DNA of 64,000 nt. Source: a virus. The notes beneath the pieces were generated by a model that did not search any database, had not been told where the DNA came from, and worked only from the letters and a program-made list of their open reading frames with translations. The position numbers and the translations under genes were made by a program. The stretch covers positions 22,303-86,302 of the IMG/VR virus record IMGVR_UViG_3300035088_000013. One strand, written 5' to 3'. Below are positions 1 to 62,734 of the stretch, piece after piece (position 1 is the first letter of the stretch; each line of letters starts with the position of its first letter).

Positions 1-239
1 AAGTGCAGGACCTCCCGCAGGTCGGTGGCGGCGGCCCGGCGGGCGGCCAGCAGGCTGGTGAAGGTCGCGAACAGGTGGGTGTCGGTGGCCTCGGCGTACC
101 AGGGGGTGCCGGGTTCCTCGGTGCGGATGAACACCCAGCCGGGTGTTTTGGCTTCCCATACCTCGAGGCGGCCGGTCCGCAGGTTCGGGTGGCGGGCGGT
201 GATGGTCACGGGGGGGAGGGTGCGGGTGGCGGTGGTCAT
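1..239 (-). CDS. Hypothetical protein, runs off the window start (MTTATRTLPPVTITARHPNLRTGRLEVWEAK...)
   Basis: ATG at 239 with a GAGAGG SD, downstream of the divergent promoter-hairpin copy; open frame with GC-rich third positions to base 1; not in the ORF track. Confidence 0.7.
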   Translation of the reverse strand, partial: MTTATRTLPPVTITARHPNLRTGRLEVWEAKTPGWVFIRTEEPGTPWYAEATDTHLFATFTSLLAARRAAATDLREVLH

Positions 240-260
240 GGGGTGCCTCTCTCTCGCGGT

Positions 261-330
261 GTCGTGGCCCCGCTCCAGCCGGGAGGACGACCACATAAGT
301 AAACCACGCCACCCCATTCATGTCAACAGG
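261..330 (-). promoter_or_regulatory. Divergent copy of the repeated promoter + UGGA-hairpin element
   Basis: Minus strand reads CCTGTTGACA-17 nt-TTTACT then GTCGTCCTCCC-G-GC-TGGA-GC-GGGGCCACGAC. Confidence 0.8.
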
Positions 331-357
331 TATCGCAACACGGAGGTCCAGCCGAAA

Positions 358-424
358 CCTGTTGACATCACGGTGTCGGTCGTGTTTACTTGGTTTGTGA
401 GCGGCGGGGGGCTGGAGCCCCCGC
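358..424 (+). promoter_or_regulatory. Repeated promoter + hairpin element, copy 1
   Basis: TTGACA 362-367, 17 nt spacer, TTTACT, then GCGGGGGGC-TGGA-GCCCCCGC. Confidence 0.85.
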
Positions 425-448
425 CCCAACCCCCGAGAGGCGGCCCCC

Positions 449-682
449 ATGAACACCTACACCGTGACCCTCCGCAAGGACGGCGGCCTGCGGATGCCCT
501 ACACCATGGCCGCCCCCGACACGGCAACCCTGTTCGCCGCGATCGACCCGAAGGACGAGGTCGTCTCGATCGTCCGGATCGACGACGACACCCCCGACTA
601 CCTGCTGGACTACCTGCCGCTGAGCGTCGCGTCCCGGGTCGCCGCGAACTCCGCGTTCTACGTCGGCGACCCGAACTCCTGA
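449..682 (+). CDS. Hypothetical protein
   Basis: ATG with GAGAGG SD directly after element 1. Confidence 0.8.
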   Translation: MNTYTVTLRKDGGLRMPYTMAAPDTATLFAAIDPKDEVVSIVRIDDDTPDYLLDYLPLSVASRVAANSAFYVGDPNS

Positions 683-712
683 CCACCCCACCCCGAGAAA
701 GCGAGCACCGCC

Positions 713-1084
713 ATGACGTCCCTTTTCGAGCTCCAGGTCGACCTCGAGCGCTGGGAGTTGGACCCGGCGACCATGCGGGTCGCCCAAGCGATGATCGACG
801 CCGCGTCCCCCGACCCCGACCAGGACCACGTAGCGGTCTACGTGGGGATCGCCCTGCCGGGCAAGCGGCGCGGTGTGTGGACCCTGGGCCAGCCCCTCGA
901 GGTCGCTGACGGGTTCTTCCTGGCCCGTACGGACGCGGAGGTGTCCCGGGCGCGTGAGTTCGCCGACCGGGCCGCGGAGACCCAGCTCGCGGGGCGGGCG
1001 GGGACGACCTCCTATGCGGCGGTCCGGCGCGGCGGGGGATCGGTGTTCGAGGGCATCTTCGGCGTCGAGGTGGCCGGGCCGTGA
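713..1084 (+). CDS. Hypothetical protein
   Basis: ATG, GC-rich third positions, coupled to next gene. Confidence 0.75.
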   Translation: MTSLFELQVDLERWELDPATMRVAQAMIDAASPDPDQDHVAVYVGIALPGKRRGVWTLGQPLEVADGFFLARTDAEVSRAREFADRAAETQLAGRAGTTSYAAVRRGGGSVFEGIFGVEVAGP

Positions 1085-1272
1085 TCGGCCGGATGCTGTT
1101 GCGCGGGCCGCGATATCCGCTGTTGTGGGCGGTCGCGGTGATCGTGCTGCTGCTGGTGGTGCTGCCCGTCTGGGTGGCGGTGCTGCTGGCGGTGGTGATG
1201 GTCGTGGCGGTGGTGGGCCTGGTCCGGCGGGGGGTTCGGCGGGTCCGGAGGCCCAAACAGAAACCCTGTTGA
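1081..1272 (+). CDS. Small membrane protein
   Basis: GTGA overlap; long hydrophobic stretch; stop codon lies inside the -35 box of element 2. Confidence 0.65.
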   Translation: MIGRMLLRGPRYPLLWAVAVIVLLLVVLPVWVAVLLAVVMVVAVVGLVRRGVRRVRRPKQKPC

Positions 1273-1330
1273 CATCCTGATGCCGGTCGTGTTTACTTGT
1301 CTTGTGAGCGCGGGGGGCTGGAGCCCCCGC
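1265..1330 (+). promoter_or_regulatory. Repeated promoter + hairpin element, copy 2
   Basis: TTGACA 1269-1274, 17 nt, TTTACT, hairpin. Confidence 0.85.
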
Positions 1331-1355
1331 CCCGACCCCCGAGAGGCGGCCCCCG

Positions 1356-1559
1356 ATGAGCATCTACGAGTACCGCGACGGCGTGAAGATGGCCAGCGAC
1401 GAGCTGGTGGAGTTCTGGAACAGCCGTGACCTGTGCTGGGCCTGCGACCAGATCCACACCCCGCAGCACACCACGGACGGCTTCCACCACTACCGGTGCC
1501 CGCGCAACAGCACCCACCCGTTCGACGAGCTGACCTGGAAGCGGCCCGTCACCGCCTGA
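1356..1559 (+). CDS. Small Cys/His-containing hypothetical protein
   Basis: SD + ATG after element 2; CWAC...HHYRCP. Confidence 0.8.
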   Translation: MSIYEYRDGVKMASDELVEFWNSRDLCWACDQIHTPQHTTDGFHHYRCPRNSTHPFDELTWKRPVTA

Positions 1560-1582
1560 ACCCCCGAGAGGACCCCCGACCC

Positions 1583-1822
1583 ATGACGCCTGAGACGTTC
1601 GTGATCCTCGGATCGATGCAATGGGGCTACGGCCCCACCCTGGACGCCGCGAAGCGGCGGTGGCGCACGCAAGGCCGCGGGAAACTCTCCGACGGCTACG
1701 GCGTCTACACCTTCGGCGAGGGGTCGACCTTCGAGGGGGTCGACAACCTCGGCCGGGTGCACTGGTCCGGCGAGCGGCCCGCGTTCACCGAGGTCCCGGC
1801 CCGGACCCGGAAAGCCTGTTGA
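1583..1822 (+). CDS. Hypothetical protein (MTPETFVILGSMQWGYG...)
   Basis: GAGAGGA SD, ATG 1583; stop inside the -35 box of element 3. Confidence 0.8.
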   Translation: MTPETFVILGSMQWGYGPTLDAAKRRWRTQGRGKLSDGYGVYTFGEGSTFEGVDNLGRVHWSGERPAFTEVPARTRKAC

Positions 1823-1878
1823 CATCGCACGGGTGATCGTGTTTACTTGGTTTGTGAGCGGGGGGCTGGAGCCCCCGC
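1815..1878 (+). promoter_or_regulatory. Repeated promoter + hairpin element, copy 3
   Basis: TTGACA 1819-1824, 17 nt, TTTACT, hairpin. Confidence 0.85.
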
Positions 1879-1899
1879 CCCAACCCCGAGGAGGCCCCC

Positions 1900-2121
1900 A
1901 TGACCACCATCACCCGGTTCCCGTGCCCCCACCCGGTGCAGGACGCCGACGAGGACGGCATCTACACCACCGACTGCGAGGCCCCGGCCGCGACCTACGC
2001 CGACGGCACCGGCTGGGCGTGCGTGAACGGCCACCACGACGCCGACGACTCCTACCGGGTCGAGGACCCGGCCGAGAACTTCCGCGAGCGGTACATCGAG
2101 CGGATGTACGCCACCGCGTGA
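1900..2121 (+). CDS. Small hypothetical protein
   Basis: GAGGAGG SD + ATG after element 3. Confidence 0.8.
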   Translation: MTTITRFPCPHPVQDADEDGIYTTDCEAPAATYADGTGWACVNGHHDADDSYRVEDPAENFRERYIERMYATA

Positions 2122-2177
2122 CCCCCCCCGGGCCGGGGGAGGCGACCCCCCGGCCCCCCGAGAGAGGCAGCACACCC

Positions 2178-2924
2178 ATGAGCACCCACGCGATCATCGG
2201 CACCCCCACCCCCGGCGGCGGATTCCGGGGCCGCTACGTCCACTACGACGGCGCGCCGCACGGCGTCGGCACAACCCTCGCGGCGATCATCGCTCGCGAC
2301 GGCCTCGAGCACGCCCTGCGGGTTCTCACCGAGGACCACACCTCCTGGGCAATGCTGGACGAGGACCTGCCCGAGCACCCCGACGACATCCCGTTCACCG
2401 TGCGCCACAACCGGCAGGTCGCCGGATACGGGATGGCGCACCACCCGGACGAGCCGACCGCTGCCGAGTGGTACTCCGACACCGGCACCACCGAGGCCGG
2501 GGCGGAGTGGGCGTACGCGGCCACCCCCGACGGCATCCAGGTGTGGCGGCGGCCGATCGGCGGGAGCTGGGGGCGGCGGCCCGACCTGGACATCACCTAC
2601 CCGGTCCGGGAGACCGTGTGGTGCGGCGCGGCGCACGGCGGCCCCGGGAAGCCGCACTTCGACCGGCCGGACTGCGTCGGCCCGCACTACACCGACCAGC
2701 GGACCCGTGAGCGGCTGAACGCCGAGCACATCCGGGCCGGGCGGCCGGACACCCCCGGCCACGGCGGCGGTGGACGTGCGGAGCTGCTGGACCTGCTGGC
2801 CGGGCGGATCGAGCTGGCCTACGCGAAATCCCGGACCGGGCATGTCGGCGAGCACGCACGGGAGATAGCGGAACTGATCCTGGACACCCCCGGCATCACC
2901 ATCACGAAGGAGCAGCAGGCATGA
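2178..2924 (+). CDS. Hypothetical protein (MSTHAIIG...YVHYDGAP)
   Basis: GAGAGG SD, ATG 2178; N-terminal ST..IG...Y.H.DG.P pattern recalled from phage/plasmid hypothetical proteins. Confidence 0.8.
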   Translation: MSTHAIIGTPTPGGGFRGRYVHYDGAPHGVGTTLAAIIARDGLEHALRVLTEDHTSWAMLDEDLPEHPDDIPFTVRHNRQVAGYGMAHHPDEPTAAEWYSDTGTTEAGAEWAYAATPDGIQVWRRPIGGSWGRRPDLDITYPVRETVWCGAAHGGPGKPHFDRPDCVGPHYTDQRTRERLNAEHIRAGRPDTPGHGGGGRAELLDLLAGRIELAYAKSRTGHVGEHAREIAELILDTPGITITKEQQA

Positions 2925-3220
2925 GTCTCGACGGGTTCTGGGCGGCGATCGACCACCAGCTCGAGCAGCTGCGGACGGCCACGACGGTCGACGAGGTGAT
3001 CGGCATCCTCGGCGGCAAGCACCCCGACTCGTCCGGGGATGCGTTCTTCGCCGGGGGCGGCGGCGACGGCTCGGTCTACGAGTCGCTGCGCGAGGCGGGC
3101 TGGGAGGTGGCCTGGTTCGACGCCGGGTACTACTGGGCGATGCGGACCCCCGACGGCCGGGACGGCATCACGTACGTCGAGGGCGACATCATGCGGGGGG
3201 TGCGCAAGCCGGTGTTCTGA
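2921..3220 (+). CDS. Hypothetical protein
   Basis: ATGA overlap, AAGGAG SD. Confidence 0.8.
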   Translation: MSLDGFWAAIDHQLEQLRTATTVDEVIGILGGKHPDSSGDAFFAGGGGDGSVYESLREAGWEVAWFDAGYYWAMRTPDGRDGITYVEGDIMRGVRKPVF

Positions 3221-3499
3221 GCCCGGGGTCCCCGGGGGCGTCCCGAACAGGCACCCCCGGGGGTAGGACATACGCAGCAGTGAGCATAACCGGCCGGTTC
3301 GCCCGGCCGGGGCGGGACACGCGCGGCGGGGCCTCCAGAACCCCGCTGGGCGGCCCGGCGGCCGGACGGGTACCCACGGGGTCCCCGCTGGCCGTGACGG
3401 GCCAGGGCGGGCGTCGTAGCGAGCCCCCCGGGTGGAGTTGCCTCTCCTCCCCGGGGCGCGGCCGGTACGACGCCCGCCTTGTCGTATCCACCACCCAAG

Positions 3500-3567
3500 C
3501 CTGTTGACATCACGCGGTGCATCGTGTTTACTCAGTTTGTGAGCGGCGGAGGGGCTGGAGCCCCCGC
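3500..3567 (+). promoter_or_regulatory. Repeated promoter + hairpin element, copy 4
   Basis: TTGACA 3504-3509, 17 nt, TTTACT, hairpin with an extra A in the 5' arm. Confidence 0.85.
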
Positions 3568-3590
3568 CCGAACCCGAAGGGGAGGCCGAC

Positions 3591-3860
3591 ATGTTCCGCA
3601 CCGAACGTGAGCGGGAGTGCTACCGGGCGTTGCACACCGGCGGAGAGGCGGCGCTGGAGGCGCTGGTCGGGGACGTGATCTCCACCGATCTGATCAACCG
3701 CTGGGCGGACGCGGGGATGCTCCGGGTGAAGAACCTCGACCCCGGACGCGCACCGAAGCCCCTGGTCCTGATGAACGCGGACGAGCGTGCCGCGTGGAAC
3801 GCCCACGTCATCGCGAACACCGGCTACACGATCAAGACGTTCGCGAAGTACGCCCACTGA
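3591..3860 (+). CDS. Hypothetical protein
   Basis: GGGGAGG SD + ATG after element 4. Confidence 0.8.
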   Translation: MFRTERERECYRALHTGGEAALEALVGDVISTDLINRWADAGMLRVKNLDPGRAPKPLVLMNADERAAWNAHVIANTGYTIKTFAKYAH

Positions 3861-3861
3861 T

Positions 3862-3927
3862 CCTGTTGACATGACGCAGGAGATGGTGTTTACTTTGTTT
3901 GTGAGCGCGGGGGGCTGGAGCCCCCGC
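3862..3927 (+). promoter_or_regulatory. Repeated promoter + hairpin element, copy 5
   Basis: TTGACA 3866-3871, 17 nt, TTTACT, hairpin. Confidence 0.85.
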
Positions 3928-3948
3928 CCCGCGAGAGAGGCCACCGAC

Positions 3949-4851
3949 ATGATGACCACCGCGAACACCACCGCCACCGCCGGGACCTGCCTGGCCTGCG
4001 GATTCGTCAACGCCACCACCGACCCCGCCACCGTCACCGCCTGCACCGGATGCGGGGAGCGGGTCGTGCTGACCTGGGTCCGGGGCGTCACCAACAAGCG
4101 GGTCCCCTGCGACGACCGGTGCCAATACGCCATCGGCTCCTACTGCTCCTGCGCCTGCGGCGGCCGCAACCACCGGGCCGGATACATCCACGTCGACCTG
4201 GTCCCCGCCTACATCCGGGAGCGCGACGCGAAACGGCACGCCGACCGGCTGGCCCGGGCCGCCAGCAAGGCCGCCGCGACCCGGGCCGCGCACGCCACCG
4301 CGATGGCCGAGCTGCTGGCCGAGCACCCCACCCTGGAGGCCCTGCTGGGCGACCGGTACGACGGCGCGTACGGCTTCATGGCCGACATGCGGGCCGCGCT
4401 GGAGCGGGGCGACATGACCCCCCGGCAGATCGAGGCCGCGACCGACGCCGTCGAGCGCGACGCCGCCCGGGACCGGGCACGCGACGAGCGGGACGCGGCG
4501 CGGGCCGCGCTGGCCGCCGCGGGGGTCAAGGTCACCGAGGGCCGCCGGGTCCTCGAGGGCGAGATCGTCCGGGTGTCCAGCAAGGAGAGCTACTTCGGCT
4601 ACCAGGAGCGGACCGTGTGGCAGATCATGGTCAAGCTGGCCGACGGGTGCACGGTGATGGGCACCCTGCCCGAGGGGATCCGGCCCACCTCCTACACCGG
4701 CGGCGAGGCCACCGACGAGGGCTCCTGGGCGTGGCACATGGCCCAGCTGGTCGGCAAGACCGTCCGGTTCACCGGCACCGTGAAGCCCTCCGACCGGGAC
4801 GAGACCTTCGGGTTCTACACCCGGCCCACCAAGGCCGCACTGGTCGACTGA
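3949..4851 (+). CDS. Cys-rich Zn-binding protein with a probable C-terminal OB-fold
   Basis: ATG 3949 after element 5; CLAC..CTGC and CDDRC...CSCACGGRNH; C-terminal beta-rich GKTVRFTGTVK...RP. Confidence 0.75.
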   Translation: MMTTANTTATAGTCLACGFVNATTDPATVTACTGCGERVVLTWVRGVTNKRVPCDDRCQYAIGSYCSCACGGRNHRAGYIHVDLVPAYIRERDAKRHADRLARAASKAAATRAAHATAMAELLAEHPTLEALLGDRYDGAYGFMADMRAALERGDMTPRQIEAATDAVERDAARDRARDERDAARAALAAAGVKVTEGRRVLEGEIVRVSSKESYFGYQERTVWQIMVKLADGCTVMGTLPEGIRPTSYTGGEATDEGSWAWHMAQLVGKTVRFTGTVKPSDRDETFGFYTRPTKAALVD

Positions 4852-4868
4852 GACTGGGCGCGGCGGGA

Positions 4869-4894
4869 CGCCCGGGGCTGACCGGCCCCGGGCG
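4869..4894 (+). terminator. Hairpin after the 3949 gene
   Basis: CGCCCGGGGC / GCCCCGGGCG inverted repeat. Confidence 0.5.
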
Positions 4895-4910
4895 GACCCG
4901 GTATCGTCTC

Positions 4911-5068
4911 CAGGCACAAGCACGGGCGCGGTCCACCCCGGCGGGCGTTGGTCACATGGGCCTCTCCGCCCGCCGTACCCCGGACCCCCGTGCTTGAGCG
5001 GCCTGCAAGTCGTCTCCAGCGCGCGCAGGTCGTGACTGAAAGCCCCCCGTGATCACCGGGGGGCTTTC
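4911..5068 (+). ncRNA. Candidate structured small RNA
   Basis: No credible ORF; nested pairings form a long rod; TATCGT -10-like box at 4902-4907; terminator at the 3' end. Confidence 0.4.
5038..5068. terminator. Intrinsic terminator, possibly bidirectional
   Basis: GAAAGCCCCCCG-TGATCAC-CGGGGGGCTTTC, 12-bp stem. Confidence 0.75.
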
Positions 5069-5128
5069 GGCGTTCACCGGTCCGGCTCGGGGTTACTCAT
5101 CCTTCCTTCCACGTGTAAGATGATCAGT

Positions 5129-5410
5129 ATGGCAAAGGACAAGGTCACCGTCACACTGGATCCCGAAATCATCGCCTACACCGACGCGGACGCGGCCAGC
5201 GAAGGCCTGAACCGCTCCGAATACGTCGAGCGGACCCTCCGCGACGTCCACAACCGGCTACGCGCCCGCCGCGCGGTGGAGGGGACCGCCGCACTGCTGG
5301 CCGATCCGGACTTCGCCGCCCAGCTGGCCGCCGCCCGCGCATGGACCGCCCCGTTCCGCGAAGCCCGCAGCCAGCACCTCAACGAGTTGAACGCCACGGC
5401 CGCCGCGTGA
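5129..5410 (+). CDS. Ribbon-helix-helix antitoxin
   Basis: KVTVTLDPE...D..A...GLNRSEYVE RHH pattern; probably leaderless from TAAGAT at 5116-5121 (alternative ATG 5120). Confidence 0.75.
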   Translation: MAKDKVTVTLDPEIIAYTDADAASEGLNRSEYVERTLRDVHNRLRARRAVEGTAALLADPDFAAQLAAARAWTAPFREARSQHLNELNATAAA

Positions 5411-5706
5411 AACACGCCGAGATCCACTCGCCGGACCGGCAGACCAACGCCAAGTTCGTGGTCCTCACCAGCGACAGCTGGAACAGCTCCGGCCAAGACC
5501 CGGTGATCGCCCATATCATCCGCAGCCACGGCGCGGGCAACGACCTCGTGATCGAGCTGAGCGAATTCGACCCGGTCAGCGGAGTCGTGCTCACGCCCTG
5601 GCCGGAGAGCATCCCGGCCAACGAACCTACCGAGCTGCTCGGCATGCTCACCGGCGCGACCATGGCCCGCCTCAAAGACGCGCTGCGCCTGCTGTACGAC
5701 CTGTGA
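5407..5706 (+). CDS. MazF/PemK-like toxin
   Basis: GTGA overlap with the antitoxin; VVLTSDSWN and G.L...M..L..AL..L.DL patterns. Confidence 0.65.
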   Translation: MKHAEIHSPDRQTNAKFVVLTSDSWNSSGQDPVIAHIIRSHGAGNDLVIELSEFDPVSGVVLTPWPESIPANEPTELLGMLTGATMARLKDALRLLYDL

Positions 5707-5753
5707 AAACAGCCTCACCCGGGCGGTCTCCGAATCCGGCCCCAGCGTTCCGT

Positions 5754-5798
5754 TCGCCCCCCTTCCGGCCCTGGCCGCCGAGGGGGGCGATTTCTTTT
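5754..5798 (+). terminator. Intrinsic terminator after the TA pair
   Basis: TCGCCCCCCT...AGGGGGGCGA stem followed by TTTCTTTT. Confidence 0.75.
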
Positions 5799-5804
5799 CC
5801 CCTA

Positions 5805-5873
5805 CCTGTTGACATCCTGGCTGTGTCCGTGTTTACTTAGTTTATGAGCGGCGGGGGGGCTGGAGCCCCCCGC
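5805..5873 (+). promoter_or_regulatory. Repeated promoter + hairpin element, copy 6
   Basis: TTGACA 5809-5814, 17 nt, TTTACT; hairpin arms G7/C6. Confidence 0.85.
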
Positions 5874-5893
5874 CCCGCCCGAGAGGAGCCCCC

Positions 5894-6127
5894 ATGACCA
5901 CCACGATCGACACCCCCCGCGGCCCGATCTCCGTCGGCGCGCGGATCGGCTACAAGCCCTTCCTGGGCGGCCTGCGCATGGTCACCGTGACCCTGGTCGA
6001 CCCCGACATCAGGAACGGCCGTCCCGGGTTCGAGGGCGTCGTCGACGGCGTCACCGACCCCGACGACGCCGGGGTGTGGGGTTACGCCGACCAGATCATC
6101 CGGATCTACGACCGGGGGCTGGCGTGA
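5894..6127 (+). CDS. Small hypothetical protein
   Basis: GAGGAG SD + ATG after element 6. Confidence 0.8.
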   Translation: MTTTIDTPRGPISVGARIGYKPFLGGLRMVTVTLVDPDIRNGRPGFEGVVDGVTDPDDAGVWGYADQIIRIYDRGLA

Positions 6128-6399
6128 TGAGCGCGCTCACCGTGCGGGAGCTGCTGGACGGCCTCGCGGACGGCCGGTTCACCCTCGAGCAGGTGGCGGC
6201 GGACTTCGCCGCCCGGCCGTGGCCGCCGTTGCCGCCGCGGCCGACTCTGGCCCAGGCGTACGGGGTGAACGATGACGAGCTGGTCGGCGACCCGGACTCG
6301 TGGAAGCAGGTGCAGACCGATCCGCGGTTGACCGGCGTCCAGTACGAGGTCCTGTTCCACGCGGCCGGGCCGCAGACCCGACAGGAGGGTCCGGCGTGA
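6127..6399 (+). CDS. Paralog of 30935-31192 (candidate orphan immunity protein)
   Basis: Coupled to the upstream gene; 56/81 identical residues, ungapped manual alignment, to the 30935-31192 product. Confidence 0.85.
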   Translation: MSALTVRELLDGLADGRFTLEQVAADFAARPWPPLPPRPTLAQAYGVNDDELVGDPDSWKQVQTDPRLTGVQYEVLFHAAGPQTRQEGPA

Positions 6400-6665
6400 G
6401 CGAGATCTACCGGCCGGGGGAGGTGGTCGCGGTGAGCGTCGACGGCGGGGTGCGGCCGATGTACGTGCACCGGGTGGTGCAGCTGCTGGTCGTGGGGACG
6501 TCGCCGGAGGGCGGCCGGACGTGCAAGGTGGGGGAGCGGGAGGTGGTCGCGGTCGGGCTCCCGGCGGTCTCCGAGGCGGTCGCGCGGGCGTCGGGGTTCG
6601 ACGTGCAGCAGGTGGCCGAGAGCATCGCGGAGGACTACGCCGATTGGGTCGCGGACCAAAACTAG
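6396..6665 (+). CDS. Hypothetical protein
   Basis: GTGA overlap, AGGAGG SD. Confidence 0.7.
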   Translation: MSEIYRPGEVVAVSVDGGVRPMYVHRVVQLLVVGTSPEGGRTCKVGEREVVAVGLPAVSEAVARASGFDVQQVAESIAEDYADWVADQN

Positions 6666-6669
6666 CCCG

Positions 6670-6736
6670 CCTGTTGACATCACGTGCCAGATCGTGTTTA
6701 CTTGGTTTGTGAGCGGCGGGGGGCTGGAGCCCCCGC
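6670..6736 (+). promoter_or_regulatory. Repeated promoter + hairpin element, copy 7
   Basis: TTGACA 6674-6679, 17 nt, TTTACT, hairpin. Confidence 0.85.
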
Positions 6737-6766
6737 CCCCGACCCCGACCCCCCGAGGAGGCCCCC

Positions 6767-6949
6767 ATGTACGACGTCCACCCCGCCTACGCCGACGCGA
6801 ACGGCACCTACGCCTGGTGCGACCGGCACGACCTGACCACCGTGGTCGCCGAGCACACCGCGGTCGGCTACGCGGGCGGCACCGTCTGGTCCCTGGAGCT
6901 GGCCTGCGGGTGCACCGAGACCAGCGAGACCATCGGGGACATCCGGTGA
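6767..6949 (+). CDS. Small hypothetical protein
   Basis: GAGGAGG SD + ATG after element 7. Confidence 0.8.
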   Translation: MYDVHPAYADANGTYAWCDRHDLTTVVAEHTAVGYAGGTVWSLELACGCTETSETIGDIR

Positions 6950-7386
6950 CCGGCCACCGGTGGCGGCCGGTGCCGCTGTGGCCGTCCGCGCGGCGGTGCT
7001 CGGCGTGCCGCCTGGTCGCGGCCCGGTTCGGCGGCGAGAAGCCGGGATCGTTCACCGCGTGGATGTCCGGCGGGGTCCTGTTGGGCACCAGCCAGCGGGA
7101 CACCGAGCCGGGGTGCCCGACCCCGTACGCCCCGAACGCGGGATCCGGCCCGAAGCGGGGCTGGCAGGCCGTCTACGGCGACGCCTCGAGGCAGGCGGTC
7201 CCCACCCCCGCGCAGGTCCGCGTCCTCGCCCAGGGCCTCGCCAGCGGCGACACGGTCCTCGAGGGCGGGCACCGTCCGGCGACCGTGGCCCGGATGCGCA
7301 CGTACGGGTGGCTCGACAACCGGTACCGGGTCACCCCGGCCGGGGCGGCGGCGTTCGGGCGGCGCGGCGGCCGGGTGCCCGCCTAG
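6946..7386 (+). CDS. Hypothetical protein, possible C-terminal winged helix
   Basis: GTGA overlap; TPAQ..VL...TVARM...GWL...VTPAG pattern. Confidence 0.65.
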   Translation: MTGHRWRPVPLWPSARRCSACRLVAARFGGEKPGSFTAWMSGGVLLGTSQRDTEPGCPTPYAPNAGSGPKRGWQAVYGDASRQAVPTPAQVRVLAQGLASGDTVLEGGHRPATVARMRTYGWLDNRYRVTPAGAAAFGRRGGRVPA

Positions 7387-7661
7387 GCCGTGGGTGGCGG
7401 GGCGGGCGGGACGGCGATCCGGTTCACCTCGAGGACGAACGTCTGCGCGTCTACGTTGATGGCGAGGGTGTTGCCGGTGAGCCGGTCGACCGCGGCCACG
7501 TGCTCCCCGCCGTCGATCAGGGCGGCGAGGTAGGACACGAACCTTTCCACGCCCATCGGGGGCGGCTCGTGGACGGCCGCTTCGCGGCGCAGCCCGCAGA
7601 ACCGGCCGCCGACGTCGTACATGCACGTTCCGGCCGCGCTGATCAGGAATGGGTGGCCCAT
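7383..7661 (-). CDS. Hypothetical protein, antisense to the array, probably leaderless
   Basis: TACACT -10-like box 7 nt before ATG 7661; fills the gap between cassettes. Confidence 0.6.
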   Translation of the reverse strand: MGHPFLISAAGTCMYDVGGRFCGLRREAAVHEPPPMGVERFVSYLAALIDGGEHVAAVDRLTGNTLAINVDAQTFVLEVNRIAVPPAPPPTA

Positions 7662-7698
7662 CCCGGGGAGTGTACGGGGCCGGGAAACCCCCGCATCG

Positions 7699-7762
7699 CC
7701 TGTTGACATCGCGTGCGGGATGGTGTTTACTTGGTTTGTGAGCGGGGGGCTGGAGCCCCCGC
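7699..7762 (+). promoter_or_regulatory. Repeated promoter + hairpin element, copy 8
   Basis: TTGACA 7703-7708, 17 nt, TTTACT, hairpin. Confidence 0.85.
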
Positions 7763-7784
7763 CCCGAGCGCCCGGGAGGCCCCC

Positions 7785-8144
7785 ATGTTCACCACCTACG
7801 AGATCCTCACCGCCCGCATCGGCGCGACGTTCGACGGCCTGATCGTCGCGGACCGGTCCTGGCCCGCGGACGCGCCGAAGCCCGGCCCGGAGCTGGAGCC
7901 CGGCTCGGACGCCTGGTACGAGGCCATCGGCCCGGCGGGCACGGTGTACCTGACCTCCGACGGCCGCGGAGCGAACACCTACGGGTGGTGCGAGTGTGGC
8001 GGACAGACCGGCCAGGTGTGGTTCGACTCGCCCGGCATCGGCGAGGGCCAGGTGTGGGTGCGCTACGAGCGGTACACGCCCGCGGGGCGGGAGGCGCACG
8101 GGTGGGTGCACCAGGGCTGCCGGATGCTGCTGCAGGTCGGCTGA
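7785..8144 (+). CDS. Hypothetical protein (MFTTYEILTARIG...)
   Basis: GGGAGG SD + ATG 7785 after element 8. Confidence 0.8.
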   Translation: MFTTYEILTARIGATFDGLIVADRSWPADAPKPGPELEPGSDAWYEAIGPAGTVYLTSDGRGANTYGWCECGGQTGQVWFDSPGIGEGQVWVRYERYTPAGREAHGWVHQGCRMLLQVG

Positions 8145-8151
8145 GCGGGCC

Positions 8152-8179
8152 GGGGGTGTTGGCGATCGCCAACACCCCC
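8152..8179. terminator. Perfect 28-bp palindrome, likely terminator
   Basis: GGGGGTGTTGGCGATCGCCAACACCCCC between a stop codon and element 9. Confidence 0.55.
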
Positions 8180-8197
8180 CGGATCGGTTACCGAAAC

Positions 8198-8259
8198 CCT
8201 GTTGACATGACGCGGTTCATCGTGTTTACTTGACTTGTGCGGGGGGCTGGAGCCCCCGC
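8198..8259 (+). promoter_or_regulatory. Repeated promoter + hairpin element, copy 9
   Basis: TTGACA 8202-8207, 17 nt, TTTACT, hairpin. Confidence 0.85.
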
Positions 8260-8280
8260 CCCGCCCCAAGGAGGCCCCCG

Positions 8281-8598
8281 ATGGCGACGATGATCCGCTG
8301 CGGCACCTGCATCAACCGGCACGCGACCGTCGCGGATGTTCGCGAGTGCGCCGCGGAGTTCTACGACTACCAGGCCCAAAGCGAGGGTGAGATCTACGCC
8401 GAAGCGGTCATGTCCTGGGTGATGGGCGGCGGGAACCCCGAGGATGCCTCCCTCTACGCGGGAGTGATCGCCCGCGGCGGCGTCTGGAACGGCGGCATCG
8501 CACCCCCCGGCGACGACGACGGCGACGACGAGCTGTGCGAGCACGGCTTGTCCGCCCGGCTGTGCGTCGGCCCCTCCCACTACCCCCTGGACATGTGA
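8281..8598 (+). CDS. Cys/His-containing hypothetical protein
   Basis: AAGGAGG SD + ATG 8281; CGTC..H...C and CEHG....C...HY. Confidence 0.8.
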   Translation: MATMIRCGTCINRHATVADVRECAAEFYDYQAQSEGEIYAEAVMSWVMGGGNPEDASLYAGVIARGGVWNGGIAPPGDDDGDDELCEHGLSARLCVGPSHYPLDM

Positions 8599-8667
8599 CC
8601 ACCACCCCCCCCGGCCCCCGGGCGATCCCGCCCGGGGGGAACGTCAACGTTCCGGAAAGGACACACC

Positions 8668-8961
8668 ATGGCGACTCTCTCCCGCGACCAGTGGGAAAAG
8701 CTGCTCGACGCACTGGCCGACCTCGAGGCCATCGACGAGGGCCACCAGCCCCACCCCGACGACACCGACTGCGCCGCGTTCGTCCTCGCCAGCACCGGCC
8801 AGATCGTGCGGTTCGGCGGGTTCCTCGCCCAGGCGTTGACCAACGCCGGGCTCGGCGACTTCGACCGGGACCTGTTCTACGACGATGCCCGCACGGAGAT
8901 CATCGACCGCGGCCGGGTGCTGCTGTACTTCCGGTCCGTCACGATCGCGAAGGGAGAGTGA
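8668..8961 (+). CDS. Hypothetical protein
   Basis: GAAAGGA SD + ATG. Confidence 0.8.
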   Translation: MATLSRDQWEKLLDALADLEAIDEGHQPHPDDTDCAAFVLASTGQIVRFGGFLAQALTNAGLGDFDRDLFYDDARTEIIDRGRVLLYFRSVTIAKGE

Positions 8962-8963
8962 GC

Positions 8964-9209
8964 ATGGATTGGACGATGCCCGCGGAGTTGGAGCCGTACC
9001 GGGAGCTGATCACCAACACCGGCGGCAACACCGTGGAAAGGCTGATGAGCATCTATCTGGCCGGGGGTGAGGCCGGTGCCCGGATGATGCAGACGAACCT
9101 TCCGGTGTATCTGATGGCGTGCATGTGCGGCGCGCAGATCGCATTGCTGCGGGTGCTGGTGCGGGAGGGGAAGCTCCCCGCGCGCGGCCCGGCCGCTGGA
9201 GCGCGGTGA
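8964..9209 (+). CDS. Hypothetical protein (MDWTMPAELEPY...)
   Basis: GGGAG SD, ATG 8964. Confidence 0.7.
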   Translation: MDWTMPAELEPYRELITNTGGNTVERLMSIYLAGGEAGARMMQTNLPVYLMACMCGAQIALLRVLVREGKLPARGPAAGAR

Positions 9210-9448
9210 TGGGCCGCGCGTACGAGAAGCGGATGGCCCGGTTGCAGGCCGCGCAGGAAGCAACCGGCCGCGCCCCGGCTCCGGCGGGGCCGATGCACCG
9301 GGCCAGCCGGGAGGCGTTCGTGCGCGGTTTCGGCCTGTCGGCGGCGGCCGTCAAGCAGTTGGTCGACCGGTGGGAGGCTGACGCGGTGGCCTGTTACGAC
9401 AAGGGGTTCGACGACGGGCGGGAGTGGCAGGAGGAGCAGCAGGGGTGA
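9209..9448 (+). CDS. Hypothetical protein
   Basis: TGATG overlap. Confidence 0.65.
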   Translation: MGRAYEKRMARLQAAQEATGRAPAPAGPMHRASREAFVRGFGLSAAAVKQLVDRWEADAVACYDKGFDDGREWQEEQQG

Positions 9449-9669
9449 AGCGGCGGGGGTGGCTGGAGCGGCTGAGAGCCGATCTGCCGGGCTGGTACGT
9501 GTGGGCGACCGGGTACGGGAGGCAGTGGCATGCGGTGCCGCTGGCGGGCGGCTGGCGGGTCGGCCGGGCTCCCCGGGGGGCTCCGGGGCGGATCGACGCG
9601 CCGTCGCCGATCGTGTTGCGCAGTCTGGTGCGTCAGAAAGAACGAGACAACCCCACTCCACCCTGTTGA
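9445..9669 (+). CDS. Hypothetical Trp-rich protein
   Basis: GTGA overlap, GGAGGAG SD; stop inside the -35 box of element 10. Confidence 0.6.
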   Translation: MKRRGWLERLRADLPGWYVWATGYGRQWHAVPLAGGWRVGRAPRGAPGRIDAPSPIVLRSLVRQKERDNPTPPC

Positions 9670-9725
9670 CATCCGAACGGGTGACGTGTTTACTTGGTTT
9701 GTGAGCGGGGGGCTGGAGCCCCCGC
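9662..9725 (+). promoter_or_regulatory. Repeated promoter + hairpin element, copy 10
   Basis: TTGACA 9666-9671, 17 nt, TTTACT, hairpin. Confidence 0.85.
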
Positions 9726-9748
9726 CCCAACCCGGAGAGGCAACCACC

Positions 9749-10135
9749 ATGAGCCGTGAACTCACCCCCTGGGCCGCGACCGCGAAGGCCACCCGCACCG
9801 CGATCAAGGCCCGCCGTGACGAGCTGGGCATCCCGGCCACCGCCACGATCAAGGTCACCTCCGACTCCTTCGCCGGGGGCGCGTCGGTGGACGTGTGGAT
9901 CGGCGACGCCGACTCATGGGCGTGGCGGACCGCGACCGACCTCGATCGCGCCCGGAACACCTGGCTGACCCCGGGGGAGCGGGTCCTCACCGCACAGGCC
10001 AAGGCCACGGGGGACGCGATCGAGGCCGTCCTCCGGGAGGTTCGCACGGCCGGTTACATCTGGGGATCGGTCACCTACGAGGGCACCGTCATCGGATCGC
10101 TGGCCCGTGCGGGCTGGCAGCCGGGCCAGGACTGA
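9749..10135 (+). CDS. Hypothetical protein (MSRELTPWAATAK...)
   Basis: GGAGAGG SD + ATG 9749 after element 10. Confidence 0.8.
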   Translation: MSRELTPWAATAKATRTAIKARRDELGIPATATIKVTSDSFAGGASVDVWIGDADSWAWRTATDLDRARNTWLTPGERVLTAQAKATGDAIEAVLREVRTAGYIWGSVTYEGTVIGSLARAGWQPGQD

Positions 10136-10152
10136 GAGAGAGGTCTACGGTC

Positions 10153-10407
10153 ATGTATTTGTTCGCGGACCCCGAGGCGATCATCTGCGCGGCGCGCATG
10201 ATCACCCGGGACTGGGGGTCGACCGGCTACGCGGTCTCGGCCGTCACCGGCGGCCCCCGCCGGTCGGTTGTCCTCGAGGTGACCTGCTCCGACGGGGGCC
10301 GGTTCCACGTCGGATCCACCCGGCACGGCAACACCACCCACGCCGACACCTTCACCCAGGTGCTCGACTGGCTCACCGCCCGAACCGAGGAGGAAGCACG
10401 ACCATGA
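10153..10407 (+). CDS. Hypothetical protein
   Basis: GAGAGG SD + ATG 10153. Confidence 0.75.
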   Translation: MYLFADPEAIICAARMITRDWGSTGYAVSAVTGGPRRSVVLEVTCSDGGRFHVGSTRHGNTTHADTFTQVLDWLTARTEEEARP

Positions 10408-12896
10408 GCGCCGACAACCCGGAAACGGTGCGCGCACTGCTGGTGCGGCCGGGCGAGGAGCCGCGGATCGCGAAGATCCCGACCGGCGACCAACCAGCAT
10501 ACGAGGCCGTCCGCGGCATGGTCGGCGGCACCCTCGAGGTGTTCGGCGGCGGCGACTGGCACGCCTACTCCGATGAGGACTACATCGCGAAGGACCTGCC
10601 CGTGAACGTGTTCGCGGCGCGCCTGCTCGAGGAGCTGGAGCCGGGGCGCGGCCGGGCGCACATCCGGGGGCCGGTGGTGTTCCTCGGCACCGGCGAGCAC
10701 GGCAAAGAGTACGACGTACCGTCCCGGATCGAGGATTTGGCCCGGCGGATGACCGCGGGATCCCTGCTCGCCGAGTGGACCGACGACGGGGCGATCCCCC
10801 TCGCCCCGGCGGCCGGGAAGGACGCGCAACTGTTGCAGGTCGCCGCGTCGATCATCCGGCAGACGGTGATCTCCCACGGCTGGAAAGACGTCGCGAACGC
10901 GGTCCCGTGCGTCCGGGTCGGGCAACAGGTCCTCGAACGGCTCGGGCACACCGCCGTGCCGGTGCCGGTGGGGTTCATGGCGTTGTCGGAGCTGTGCGCG
11001 CAAACCGGCGGCCGCCAAGGCCATTGCATCGGCGTCCTCGGCACCGGGCAGACCGACCCGCACGGCCCGAACGGGGGCAGCTGGGACGGGCATCTGGTGC
11101 TGCTGGTCGACGGGGTGTGGCTGCTGGACATCGCCGCACCCATGTTCGACCGCCCCGCGCAAGGGATCCGCATGCCGGAGGCGTTTCTGGCCCGGCTCCC
11201 CGAACCCCGGCCGGGCGGGCTGGCCGCGGGGGCGCGGCTGGCGATCACCCGCCGGGACGGGTCGGTGGTGCGGTACACGGTGAACGCCTTGACCTCCTGG
11301 CGGGACATGATCGACTGGGCGGGCCGCTCCGACCGGGTCGAGGCCGCGACCATGGAGGCGCTGCGGCTGCTCGGCCCGTACACGCGGATGGACGACGACG
11401 CGTACGGCGGCGAGCAGTGGCTGAAGCGGCCGTGGTATTGCGCCACCTGCCATCAAGGGGTGCGGCGGATGAACCTCCCCGACGGGACGGTCCAATACGC
11501 GCACGCCCGCCCGTGGGAGGTCACCGACGGCCACCCGGTCATGCCCGAGCAGATCGACGACATCACCAAGGTCAAGCTGGTCTGCGACTTCTGCCTGGAC
11601 CCGGACCCCGTATGGGCGTACACCGGCCCGAACATCATCAAAAAGTCGATCGTCTCCCCCCTCACCGGCCAAGTGGTTGCCCCGGGCAAGGAGGGCCTGG
11701 AGGGGCTGGGCACCCTCTGGTCGGGCTGCAACATCTGCGACCGGTACGTCCTCGAGGGCGACCTCGAGGGCCTCGCCGCGTCGGTGCTGCGGTCGAAAGC
11801 GAACCGCGGCACCCGCGACCCGCACGTCATCGCGGAATGGCGGCGCACCAACATGGCCCGATGGCAGCAGTTCATCCCGAACATCACCCGACGCCGGTTG
11901 ATCAACCCCCCGGCCCTGGACCCGATCAACCCGCGGAACATGCCGCGGATCCGTAACCGGCTGATCCGGTTCCTGTCCGACGAGAACTTCTCCGCGTTCG
12001 GCTCACCCAAGGTCATGATCCTGCCCGGGCCGGACGCGGGATTCCCCGACGACCTGACCGTCATGACGACCAACCCCGCCGAGGACGTGGGTGAGGCGTA
12101 CTGCGCCCGGATCGTGCGGGGGCTGGAGCTGGCGGAGCTGTACCACGTGTCGGAGGACTTCACCGGGCTGGCCTTGTCGTCCGGCGCGGACCTGACCGAC
12201 CTGTCGGTCACCCCGGAGGAATTGCCGTCCCCGCACGGCATGATCATGTGGCAGGTGCCGATCATGACCGCCGACGCCCGGCACACCCCCGGCGCGGACG
12301 AGGCGCAGATCATCTGCGCGTCGTGGACGACGATCTCCGGGCTCGGCGTGTGGATCAACTGGTACGTGCGCACCGACCAGATCAACCCCGGCAACACCCT
12401 CATGCGGGAGGCGGCGGGGTTGCTGCTGCCGTGGGCGAACGGGTCCGGCCTCCGATTCGGCGAACCCGTCAAGGGCACCGTGGGTGAGCCGGAGGACGGG
12501 CACCCCGCCCACGACCCGGACGGCATGGGCAGCTTCCGGACGCTTTTGGCGACGTGGTTTTTGATCAACCAGCCGGGCGTCGCGCAGCAGCAGGTCGAGG
12601 TGACCAACGACAAGCAGCTGATCAAACGCGCCCGGCGGGAAGGCCGTCAACCGCCGACGGTGCGGCTGGTCGACCTGCGGCACGCGAAGGCGCACCGGGC
12701 GGCGGCGGTCGACGGCGGCCCGACCGGCCGCCAGGTCACCGTCCGGTTCCCGGTCCGCGGGCACTGGCGTCGGCAGGCGTACGGGCCGAAGCGGGGGCTG
12801 CGCCGGTCGATGTATATCGCCCCGTTCATGAAGGGGCCGGAGGGTGCCCCCCTGAAATCCGGTGGCACGGTCCCGGTCGTGCGGGTCCTCCAGTAG
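10404..12896 (+). CDS. Large multidomain protein: DUF3846-like N-terminus, possible Cys-His-Asp catalytic domain, Zn ribbons, C-terminal VRGHWR motif domain
   Basis: GAGGAGG SD, ATGA overlap; VGG.LE...DE....LPVN...GPVVFLG; PCV...GHLVLLVDG.WLLD; CATC, CDFC, CNIC; VRGHWRRQAYGP. Confidence 0.75.
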   Translation: MSADNPETVRALLVRPGEEPRIAKIPTGDQPAYEAVRGMVGGTLEVFGGGDWHAYSDEDYIAKDLPVNVFAARLLEELEPGRGRAHIRGPVVFLGTGEHGKEYDVPSRIEDLARRMTAGSLLAEWTDDGAIPLAPAAGKDAQLLQVAASIIRQTVISHGWKDVANAVPCVRVGQQVLERLGHTAVPVPVGFMALSELCAQTGGRQGHCIGVLGTGQTDPHGPNGGSWDGHLVLLVDGVWLLDIAAPMFDRPAQGIRMPEAFLARLPEPRPGGLAAGARLAITRRDGSVVRYTVNALTSWRDMIDWAGRSDRVEAATMEALRLLGPYTRMDDDAYGGEQWLKRPWYCATCHQGVRRMNLPDGTVQYAHARPWEVTDGHPVMPEQIDDITKVKLVCDFCLDPDPVWAYTGPNIIKKSIVSPLTGQVVAPGKEGLEGLGTLWSGCNICDRYVLEGDLEGLAASVLRSKANRGTRDPHVIAEWRRTNMARWQQFIPNITRRRLINPPALDPINPRNMPRIRNRLIRFLSDENFSAFGSPKVMILPGPDAGFPDDLTVMTTNPAEDVGEAYCARIVRGLELAELYHVSEDFTGLALSSGADLTDLSVTPEELPSPHGMIMWQVPIMTADARHTPGADEAQIICASWTTISGLGVWINWYVRTDQINPGNTLMREAAGLLLPWANGSGLRFGEPVKGTVGEPEDGHPAHDPDGMGSFRTLLATWFLINQPGVAQQQVEVTNDKQLIKRARREGRQPPTVRLVDLRHAKAHRAAAVDGGPTGRQVTVRFPVRGHWRRQAYGPKRGLRRSMYIAPFMKGPEGAPLKSGGTVPVVRVLQ

Positions 12897-39852: not shown

Positions 39853-40017
39853 TCAGCGCGGTTTACGGGCGGCGTTGGTGAGGATGACCGGCGGGTAGTC
39901 GACCTGCTGGCGGGCCTGCACCCTTTGGGCGTCGGACAGCTGTCGCGCGCTACGTACCGCTTCCGGGACGGGTGACGGTGACGTCGACGAGCCGGGTTCC
40001 TTCGGCGTCGGTGCCAT
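39853..40017 (-). CDS. 54-aa ORF overlapping the end of ART2 (candidate immunity)
   Basis: ATG 40017 with GAAGGTGG upstream; MAPTPKE...DAQRVQARQQVDYPPVILTNAARKPR; below the ORF-track cutoff. Confidence 0.5.
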   Translation of the reverse strand: MAPTPKEPGSSTSPSPVPEAVRSARQLSDAQRVQARQQVDYPPVILTNAARKPR

Positions 40018-40759: not shown

Positions 40760-40939
40760 TCAGCGCGGGGTGTCGTCCACCTGTGGTGGTCGCGGCTTTT
40801 CCCCGCCGCGTTGCATGCTGCCCGGCGGGTACTCGGCCAGGTAGCCGCCCAGGCCGGGCCACGTCTGATCGGTCAGCAGCAGCACCTCGTCGTCGGCGTG
40901 CCGCTTGGCGAGCCGGTCACCGGCGGGGTCGGGTTTCAT
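40760..40939 (-). CDS. 59-aa protein coupled to ART1 (candidate immunity)
   Basis: ATGA overlap with the ART1 stop, GAAGGA SD. Confidence 0.65.
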   Translation of the reverse strand: MKPDPAGDRLAKRHADDEVLLLTDQTWPGLGGYLAEYPPGSMQRGGEKPRPPQVDDTPR

Positions 40940-58770: not shown

Positions 58771-58775
58771 GCGCC

Positions 58776-62031: not shown

Positions 62032-62107
62032 TGGGGTGGGGTTCGCCGGTGCGCGGTTAGCTGCTGTGTCCGGGTGGGTGATGCGCAGGCCGGTACGGTG
62101 TGCGGCT

Positions 62108-62454: not shown

Positions 62455-62477
62455 CCGGTTGTGTGGGAGCCGTTCTC

Positions 62478-62717: not shown

Positions 62718-62734
62718 AGTTGGGGAGCGTACGG

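Follow-up and report, generated by a model that had tools for sequence, protein, structure and literature searches.

Why do the repeated early promoters of a soil phage lead, with a single exception, into a small hairpin, and what would that hairpin be read by? The window, which is the whole 64,000-nt stretch of DNA analysed here, comprises bases 22303-86302 of IMG/VR record IMGVR_UViG_3300035088_000013, an uncultured soil actinophage of 86,302 bp and an estimated 95% completeness (IMG/VR). The reading favoured here, held at about even odds (roughly 0.5), is that the element is the leader stem-loop of a modular early-gene cassette, and that its apex is a putative recognition site for a trans-acting factor coordinating the early mRNAs.

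The window has a G+C content of about 70%, and its minus strand carries the structural genes (portal, large terminase, major head, tail tube and minor tail proteins). An integrase gene (59236-60405) and a ParB-like gene are also present in the window, and by its gene content the phage is temperate. Its portal protein shares 44.5-45.5% identity with the portals of Streptomyces phages Galactica, Spocter, Hiyaa and Keanu, whose genomes measure 81-83 kb; as judged by sequence, Hiyaa is among the nearest named relatives, together with the other three. At the DNA level, megablast and blastn against 50,697 phage records found no match to the record. The early-region proteins are almost all orphans in Pfam and PHROGs, and three of them used as queries had no match in viral contigs. 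Two contigs with 77% identical portals are fragments of the structural arm, without the cassette promoter. P0015 matched 0 of 401 genomes of the class, and none in phages.

The hairpin is part of a cassette of about 90 nt, which consists of CCTG-TTGACA, a spacer of exactly 17 nt, TTTACT, about 11-13 nt, the hairpin, a C-rich linker, a Shine-Dalgarno (SD) sequence and the start codon. The window contains 11 cassettes (10 on the plus strand and 1 on the minus strand), all arranged as TTGACA-17 nt-TTTACT followed by hairpin, SD and start, and the whole 86-kb record contains 19 (16 on the plus and 3 on the minus strand), all within its first 32 kb. The copies in the window, and two divergent ones elsewhere in the record, are as follows.

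237-330, minus strand: leftward cassette; CCTG and -35 TTGACA at 326-321, 17-nt spacer, -10-like TTTACT at 303-298, hairpin, SD GAGAGAGAGG, ATG at 239.
261-291, minus strand: arm-swapped leader hairpin of that cassette, GUCGU-CC-UCCC-G-GC-UGGA-GC-GGGG-CC-ACGAC; the outer helix starts at the inferred +1; covariance model (CM) score 29.9 bits.
358-451, plus strand: cassette 1; -35 at 362-367, -10-like box at 385-390, hairpin at 403-425 (GGC-G6-C UGGA G-C5-GCC), SD at 435-440, ATG at 449.
1265-1358, plus strand: cassette 2; hairpin at 1306-1335, G6/C5; identical letters in contigs of two other metagenome runs.
1815-1902, plus strand: cassette 3; hairpin at 1854-1883, G6/C5; downstream protein 58% identical to that of cassette L171 in a related phage.
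3500-3593, plus strand: cassette 4; hairpin at 3543-3572 with an extra A, GGAGGGG opposite C5.
3862-3951, plus strand: cassette 5; hairpin at 3903-3932, G6/C5; heads the gene of a 300-aa Zn-ribbon/OB-fold protein (3949-4851).
5805-5896, plus strand: cassette 6; hairpin at 5848-5877, both runs lengthened to G7/C6.
6670-6769, plus strand: cassette 7; hairpin at 6712-6741, G6/C5.
7699-7787, plus strand: cassette 8; hairpin at 7738-7767, G6/C5.
8198-8283, plus strand: cassette 9; hairpin at 8235-8264, G6/C5; the AG of the upstream GTGAGCG is absent.
9662-9751, plus strand: cassette 10; hairpin at 9701-9730, G6/C5.
Record position 17993, outside the window: variant hairpin GGGG-AAGGA-CCCC, without the extra G.
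Record position 16463, outside the window: cassette without a hairpin.

The letters agree with the preliminary description, which had reported eight plus-strand copies with G6 opposite C5, a sixth copy in which both arms had grown, a fourth with an additional A, and a divergent minus-strand copy (GTCGT-CC-TCCC-G-GC-TGGA-GC-GGGG-CC-ACGAC). Its statement that the element stands on all 11 transcripts holds for the 11 cassettes of the window; over the full record the hairpin is found in 18 of 19 cassettes, and the apex GGCUGGAGC in 17 of 19. The core GGGGCTGGAGCCCC occurs in ten exact plus-strand copies in the window (408, 1314, 1862, 3551, 3911, 5856, 6720, 7746, 8243 and 9709), and with up to two mismatches allowed the count rises to 23, where 100 shuffles averaged 2.7 matches and never exceeded 8. 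Other variants outside the window are one G7/C5 copy, one copy with a GUCCCC 3' arm, and two copies in which GU...AC replaces GC...GC at the base of the stem (a U:A pair). The unusual letters of cassette 4 recur in a 151-nt contig of run X2, which covers 3439-3589 with 0 differences, and short stretches of the phage are matched by contigs from four other soil or root runs, with no hairpin differences among those listed. No RNA run was listed as containing the sequence.

Every one of the 11 window copies has a perfect -35 hexamer and a perfect 17-nt spacer. A sigma-70 (HrdB-type) promoter consists of TTGACA, 16-18 nt and TAnnnT, with A at position 2; the second hexamer of the cassettes, TTTACT, has no A at that position, and a sigma-70 scan called 0 promoters in them. 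With the start site taken about 7 nt after the -10-like box, we infer that the hairpin lies inside the cassette's own RNA. The loop lies 16-23 nt after the -10 and 26-37 nt before the start codon; the hairpin is thus spaced with constraint relative to both promoter and start codon, and it may act at the 5' end or near the ribosome site. In 7 of the 10 plus-strand window cassettes compared with ORF calls the promoter starts within 10 nt of the upstream stop codon (one ORF end at 1272 even overlaps the -35 at 1269), and two (-35 at 5809 and 8202) come after gaps of about 55-100 nt. A terminator scan of positions 1-11000 returned one site, against 2.4 expected, and this site sits inside a promoter spacer.

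Evidence that the stem matters as a paired structure comes from an ungapped alignment, anchored on the loop, of 21 hairpins, 17 from this phage and 4 from a relative. With the structure of the preliminary description, 95.1% of the alignment cells pair and 6 of the 8 pairs show changes on both sides, values reached by 0 of 500 shuffles; sliding the 3' partner by 1-3 columns lowers pairing to 50-62.5%. In the swapped copy GGGG/CCCC has become UCCC/GGGG, in two copies C:G has become U:A, and the G7/C6 copy lengthens both arms. Most of the two-sided changes stem from the one arm-swapped copy, together with the U:A pair in two copies, and the independent events are few. Controls for the swapped copy are given by the genome itself: at least four contiguous flanking pairs surround a fixed 9-mer at 2.6% of genome positions, and its full geometry (4 pairs, a 2x2 loop, 5 pairs) arises at 70 of 172,514 positions (0.04%), cassettes included. 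The single substitutions in the C-run are all C-to-U (3 of 3), which keeps a G:U pair in the sense RNA and leaves an A-C mismatch on the other strand; because these changes are wobble-compatible in that strand only, the pairing that is kept is that of the sense-strand RNA. Single-sequence stability is unremarkable at this G+C content (cassette 1, a canonical copy, has an MFE of -19.6 kcal/mol and z = -2.17, and the swapped copy z = -0.23). The CM separates the 21 members (at least 29.9 bits) from the next match at 17.6 bits, and the element is found behind these promoters only, with no extra copies. Taken as a pattern of substitutions, these data support selection on the stem pairing, and the structure-level selection proposed earlier stands, its signal coming mostly from the one arm-swapped copy.

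The apex is kept by more than pairing. The only close relative compared is a phage represented by two contigs of one metagenome, with four cassettes (L169, L170, L171 and L173). The product of window 1900-2118 has 58% identity (42/73) with the protein that follows L171, and the leftward gene of the window encodes a protein with 79% identity (70/89) to the one that follows L170; for the proteins behind L169 and L173, tblastn gave 0 matches in the phage of the record. Since two of these cassettes have counterparts and two have none, the cassette behaves as a module that heads orthologous and unrelated genes alike. All four hairpins of the relative retain the apex, and differ by CCCCU, by CCCUC and, in L173, by GGGG-A-GC instead of GGGG-G-GC. 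Columns 12-18 of the alignment (G-C-U-G-G-A-G) are invariant in 21 of 21 hairpins, and in the same cassettes the stretch of 13 positions that separates CCTGTTGACAT from GTGTTTACT has drifted, with majority frequencies of 0.32-0.84. In the swapped copy both arms and the initially transcribed sequence are rewritten and GGCUGGAGC is retained; in the third hairpin type, the variant one, GGA is still in the loop. These comparisons support the view that the apex is selected as a sequence, beyond what pairing alone would require.

The position of the swapped copy suggests a reason for its divergence. The leftward and the first rightward cassettes stand back to back and form a quasi-palindrome, in which the promoters (297-335 with 353-391) and the SD regions (231-253 with 435-457) correspond, and which is broken exactly at the hairpins. 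Rewriting one hairpin may have avoided a long, near-perfect palindrome, and the part that was kept would then be the part that matters. Since the relative's ortholog, behind L170, has an ordinary (canonical) hairpin, the swap probably arose in the phage of the record, although with two phages compared the opposite direction is possible.

The cassette was also looked for beyond these two phages. In viral contigs, the combined promoter and loop pattern gave one chance match, in an AT-rich contig, and the 15-mer hairpin core gave 43 single matches, none with a TTGACA/GTTTACT promoter upstream, 8 of them being copies of a single coding stretch. The promoter pattern had at least 120 single matches in genome contigs; among the matches listed, 10 loci exceed 55% G+C, and 0 of these 10 have the hairpin. 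The cassette pattern occurred in 0 of 401 genomes in the genus of G007, which has a contig titled Streptomyces physcomitrii. Rfam gave 0 matches at E <= 1 for both strands of positions 1-11000, and a literature search, which covered the Hiyaa papers in part, found no published description of the cassette element or of the Hiyaa units considered below.

What shape the apex takes is less sharply defined than its letters. The 9-mer GGCUGGAGC can be read as a bulged G followed by GC, UGGA and GC, or as a 7-nt loop, GCUGGAG, closed by a G:C pair. ViennaRNA slightly prefers the heptaloop, both for the canonical copy (-15.2 vs -14.0 kcal/mol) and for the swapped copy (-12.8 vs -11.6 kcal/mol), and in the ensemble of the canonical G6 copies the pair closing the heptaloop has a probability of 0.29-0.61 and the upper-stem pair one of 0.36-0.47. 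The two models share every covarying pair, and the pairs that tell them apart never covary. L173, with A for G at the bulge position, alone favours the bulge: its MFE structure (-15.1 kcal/mol) leaves the A unpaired, and the closing pair of the heptaloop is broken. The evidence of L173 goes no further than placing the extra base in this single copy, because an A within a G-run could bulge at several positions. The asymmetry of the arms is real, as the 5' arm is one nt longer in 19 of the 21 hairpins, two nt longer in 2 and equal in 0. Of the 21 hairpins, 19 could form a single bulged purine two bp below a 4-nt loop, with the heptaloop as good or better by energy. The bulged G below a UGGA loop, as first described, is therefore borne out in its letters and in the arm asymmetry; its placement as a bulge is not, the heptaloop folding equally well. 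An anticodon-loop mimic (C-U-GGA-G-C) was also considered and is ruled out, as its closing pair fails in the swapped copy.

The element had been likened to two well-known protein-binding RNAs. The MS2 coat-protein operator has a bulged purine on the 5' side, two bp below a loop A-N-Y-A, and includes the SD or start codon of the gene that is repressed. In one of its two folds the phage hairpin would likewise present an unpaired 5'-side purine two bp below a 4-nt loop; it differs in that the loop is UGGA in 21 of 21 hairpins, the start codon lies outside the hairpin, 26-37 nt after the loop, and the 18 sites belong to a dsDNA phage. The levivirus coat family (PF01819) had 0 matches when the 86-kb record was searched in all six frames. 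The analogy thus fails on the loop, the start codon and the coat gene, the features that define the operator. CsrA/RsmA sites carry GGA in hairpin loops (PMC4894983). A second GGA, at or close to the SD, serves the dimer. The phage resembles them in having GGA in the loop of a short 5'-leader hairpin in all three hairpin types (UGGA in 17 own copies, AAGGA in 1), and departs from them in that a second GGA lies near the SD in 13 of 22 leaders and in 0 of 4 in the relative. The CsrA family (PF02599) has 0 matches in the phage, and CsrA is not known from Actinobacteria. The comparison therefore succeeds for the loop and breaks down for the second GGA, which is not general, and for a protein encoded by the phage. 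The lambda nut site consists of boxA and boxB, the latter a 5-bp stem with a GNRA-like pentaloop bound by N protein. A promoter-proximal RNA hairpin with a conserved loop on early transcripts is common to both systems; the phage differs in having no 5-bp stem with such a pentaloop (its loop is UGGA or GCUGGAG), no boxA and no N-like protein that was found. By the features that define each of them, then, the element as read from its sequence is not an MS2, CsrA or boxB site.

The layout of the cassette is closest to that of the PeSL cassettes of T4-type phages (Arbiol et al. 2010, PMC2839356): a strong promoter combined with a GC-rich stem-loop, often polyG followed by polyC, which terminates transcription, the cassettes driving early expression and gene shuffling. 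PeSLs share with the present cassettes the repeated arrangement of promoter, stem-loop, SD and start codon before many small early genes of unknown function, and they too head non-orthologous genes in related phages (here, 2 of the relative's 4 cassettes are without counterpart). The PeSL stem-loop is a terminator and is placed inside the promoter, upstream of it or immediately ahead of the start site (PMC2839356), whereas here it follows the -10-like box by about 11-13 nt; moreover, the present element has no U-run, an invariant apex and a high-G+C actinobacterial host. Within its own lineage the phage has a looser parallel. In Hiyaa (MK279841.1), ACTTGCGC...GTGATTTAAT promoters are followed within about 10 nt by a hairpin with G first and C second in 14 of 18 units, a raw count without a shuffle baseline. 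Its loops and stems vary by unit, GGCUGGAGC is missing and CM matches reach at most 17.1 bits. Because the Hiyaa hairpins occupy the same position and have unrelated loops, the leader hairpin is, on these sequences, a general trait of the lineage, and what sets the phage group of the record apart is the fixed apex.

Gram-positive and phage 5' stabilisers of mRNA include the aprE leader, the SP82 stabiliser and the cryIIIA STAB-SD. They resemble the phage leaders in having a stem-loop and/or an SD-like GGAG near the 5' end that is not the gene's own SD, and they differ in that none is a repeated cassette with a fixed 9-nt apex. More generally, the role of 5' stem-loops in mRNA stability is established (ompA, T7 leaders, aprE, SP82). 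A simple explanation would accordingly be that the hairpin shields the 5' end from 5'-end-dependent RNases with no specific partner, and that the identical apex reflects descent and short-tract homogenisation. The fixed short distance between promoter and hairpin, the outer helix of the swapped copy, which begins at the inferred +1, and the Hiyaa hairpins at the same place with unrelated loops all suit this explanation. Against it, the apex is kept although both arms of the swapped copy were rewritten, and is kept across two phages whose proteins are 58-79% identical, while the drift of the promoter spacer in the same cassettes argues against wholesale homogenisation. As a full account, generic protection is unlikely. 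The hairpin could also be the visible trace of a DNA operator: a phage repressor or another DNA-binding protein would bind the imperfect palindrome GGGGGGCTGGAGCCCCC, located about +10 to +30, and block all early promoters in the lysogen. The conserved inverted repeats of phiC31 and the stoperators of L5 act in such a manner, and a phage that is temperate by gene content needs to silence some 19 strong promoters; no other conserved piece of the cassette is as palindromic as the element, which has one fixed orientation relative to transcription. The swapped copy, however, retains complementarity and loses the half-site sequences, its flank pairing has a chance of 2.6%, or 0.04% with the outer helix, and the three C-run changes are wobble-compatible in sense RNA only, which makes binding as DNA distinctly unlikely.

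Two further explanations concern the polymerase and not the message. As a PeSL-like attenuator, the polyG/polyC stem-loop would act mainly on read-through from the upstream unit and damp transcription along the array. T4-type PeSLs (PMC2839356) do pair strong promoters with terminating stem-loops that are often polyG then polyC, and the units checked against ORF calls succeed each other without other terminators. The hairpin comes after the inferred start site, where it would stop its own transcript too; it is followed by CCCCGCCCC in place of a U-run, and a terminator needs no fixed loop sequence. On balance attenuation is improbable. The reverse effect, a boxB-like site at which a phage protein on the nascent hairpin makes RNA polymerase resistant to termination, might be suggested by a promoter-proximal hairpin with a conserved loop on early transcripts, and by the conserved GUGAGCG just upstream of it. 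This would require 19 sites for short units, in a region where the terminator scan (1-11000) found 1 site vs 2.4 expected; the loop is not a GNRA-like pentaloop, and no N-like or Q-like protein was recognised. Since so few terminators are predicted, antitermination is not needed. Control by antitermination, one of the outcomes first envisaged, is unlikely for promoters that adjoin upstream stops in 7 of 10 checked plus-strand window cassettes, with no terminators to override, and the boxB-like version of it is highly improbable.

Recognition of the apex by a trans-acting factor thus remains the favoured reading. The stem-loop would lie a few nt from the 5' end of the mRNA, given the inferred start site, and the apex would be the candidate recognition site, most likely of a phage or host RNA-binding protein. 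A single factor could then govern how stable all the cassette mRNAs are and/or how well they are translated, in addition to generic protection of the 5' end. A protein-binding operator is plausible because selection on both structure and apex sequence is supported. The alternative partner would be the 30S subunit, through the GGAG of the loop: this GGAG and the AGGA of the variant loop are both SD cores, and auxiliary 30S binding by the loop may be a live alternative to a protein. The preliminary description had dismissed the loop GGAG as a ribosome site, and rightly pointed to a separate SD downstream; the exclusion is not a safe one, as GGAG may serve as an auxiliary site. Several observations count against recognition of the apex, namely the one cassette without a hairpin, the one with a different loop, and the variable loops of Hiyaa, which fit a purely structural role. 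No RNA-binding protein of a known family was found encoded in the phage, and homologs of CsrA, RegB, levivirus coat and sigma-70 region-2 were looked for in the phage and not found.

Two early proteins come into question as partners. The Zn-ribbon/OB-fold protein behind cassette 5 (window 3949-4851, 300 aa) has 12 homologs at 41-84% identity with invariant Cys clusters, and its model has a mean pLDDT of 78.8. In Foldseek its C-terminal domain matches the OB folds of Stn1, IF1, the LysRS N-domain, PriB and SSB, with a best E of 5.4e-4 and a query-normalised TM of only 0.14-0.23. From the model, the protein probably binds some nucleic acid; a replication protein is equally possible. The gene behind the hairpin-less cassette (record 16527-16844) encodes a Cys-rich protein of 105 aa whose tail is basic; the protein is conserved, with 22 homologs, one of them labelled Micromonospora chalcea. 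Because only its cassette is without the hairpin, this protein is a natural, if speculative, candidate for the regulator, one that would be exempt from the control it exerts. A PDB sequence search with the two candidates gave nothing below E = 0.04. In its most specific form, the idea of a partner becomes that of a post-transcriptional regulon, in which a small phage RNA-binding protein would read an MS2-like apex (purine bulge, GC and UGGA) and switch off or stabilise 18 early mRNAs together; so specified, it is quite doubtful.

The cassettes point to a high-G+C actinophage lineage with promoter/stem-loop cassettes of its own, in which the hairpin putatively lies inside the leader RNA. The -10-like TTTACT points to an unusual promoter class, and the cassette as a whole is a compact candidate expression part for actinomycetes. 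The tip of the hairpin is frozen while its stem covaries, and the arm-swapped copy serves as a natural experiment in which an RNA signal of 9 nt is left isolated. Post-transcriptional control of this kind has been described for single genes in RNA phages and T4, and is not known for whole actinophage early regions. If it is true that a factor reads the 9-nt signal, one protein could time about 18 early mRNAs post-transcriptionally.

All 19 cassettes of the record, units of about 90 nt that carry a promoter, a leader hairpin (in all except one), a Shine-Dalgarno sequence and a start codon, share TTTACT as their -10-like box (19/19; one instance lies at window positions 385-390). Position 2 of this box is a T. 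Promoters of the sigma-70 type need an A at that position, and because T replaces it a sigma-70 consensus scan calls no promoters (0). A profile search found no homolog of sigma-70 region 2 encoded by the phage. Similar boxes occur in the distantly related Streptomyces phage Hiyaa (MK279841.1), where a regular expression matched 18 repeated promoter units; 16 of them contain TTTAAT or TTTACT, and the remaining 2 have TTTTACT. The TTTACT-type promoters may form an unusual promoter class. Behind most of the Hiyaa units lies a GC hairpin whose 5-nt loop is rich in A (AACAA, AAACG and ACACG, among others), and no published description of these promoter-hairpin units was found in the literature searched. 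A segment near the leader hairpin of the first window cassette shows 83% complementarity to that hairpin's apex region (410-421), which may be due to chance. The positions of these elements are:

Hiyaa MK279841.1, 57-83 kb: promoter unit ACTTGCGC...GTGATTTAAT, repeated about 18 times
Window 342-353: GGAGGTCCAGCC, between two divergent promoters

The remainder of the window contains repeats and several further genes:

17424-17909, 19148-19283 and 35092-35424: repeat family, 136-300 nt, with 153/162-nt spacing
24455-25063: five repeat copies at an exact spacing of 135 nt (45 codons), within a 1770-aa ORF, minus strand
39953-40720 and 40939-42267, minus strand: two ADP-ribosyltransferase-like domains
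50322-50681, minus strand: 6-pyruvoyl-tetrahydropterin synthase (QueD-like) gene, E = 2.5e-28
58277-59024, plus strand: three 82-aa ORFs next to one another

The 1770-aa ORF probably encodes the tape measure protein, and the 136-300-nt family is common to two distant places in the structural arm. The ADP-ribosyltransferase-like domains lie within the head/packaging module, adjoining the minor capsid protein. The QueD-like gene may be part of a 7-deazaguanine DNA-modification pathway. Family searches gave no match for the three 82-aa ORFs, which are possibly paralogs. At the right end of the record (window 62001-64000), GGTG-rich repeats coincide with an extreme GC skew of +0.396 and an AT skew of -0.389.

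Left of the window, the record contains toxin-antitoxin-like loci and the only cassette that lacks a hairpin:

Record 11443-12080, minus strand: VapC (PIN)/VapB toxin-antitoxin pair, assigned by Pfam (record part L175)
L177:1244-1663 (plus) and L177:2325-2660 (minus): neighbouring PIN-like and ribbon-helix-helix-like proteins, recognized only by eye in ORF translations
Record 16459-16844 (L176:1501-1886): the hairpin-less cassette

Apart from the run that is the likely source, four metagenome runs of soil or roots, belonging to four studies, contain short contigs that match window positions 1-10200 identically or almost so. As for the host, the gene driven by the hairpin-less cassette encodes a Cys-rich protein of 105 aa whose C-terminal tail is basic. 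This protein has 22 homologs (52-84% identity); since one of them is labelled Micromonospora chalcea, this sequence match hints at a host among the Micromonosporaceae.
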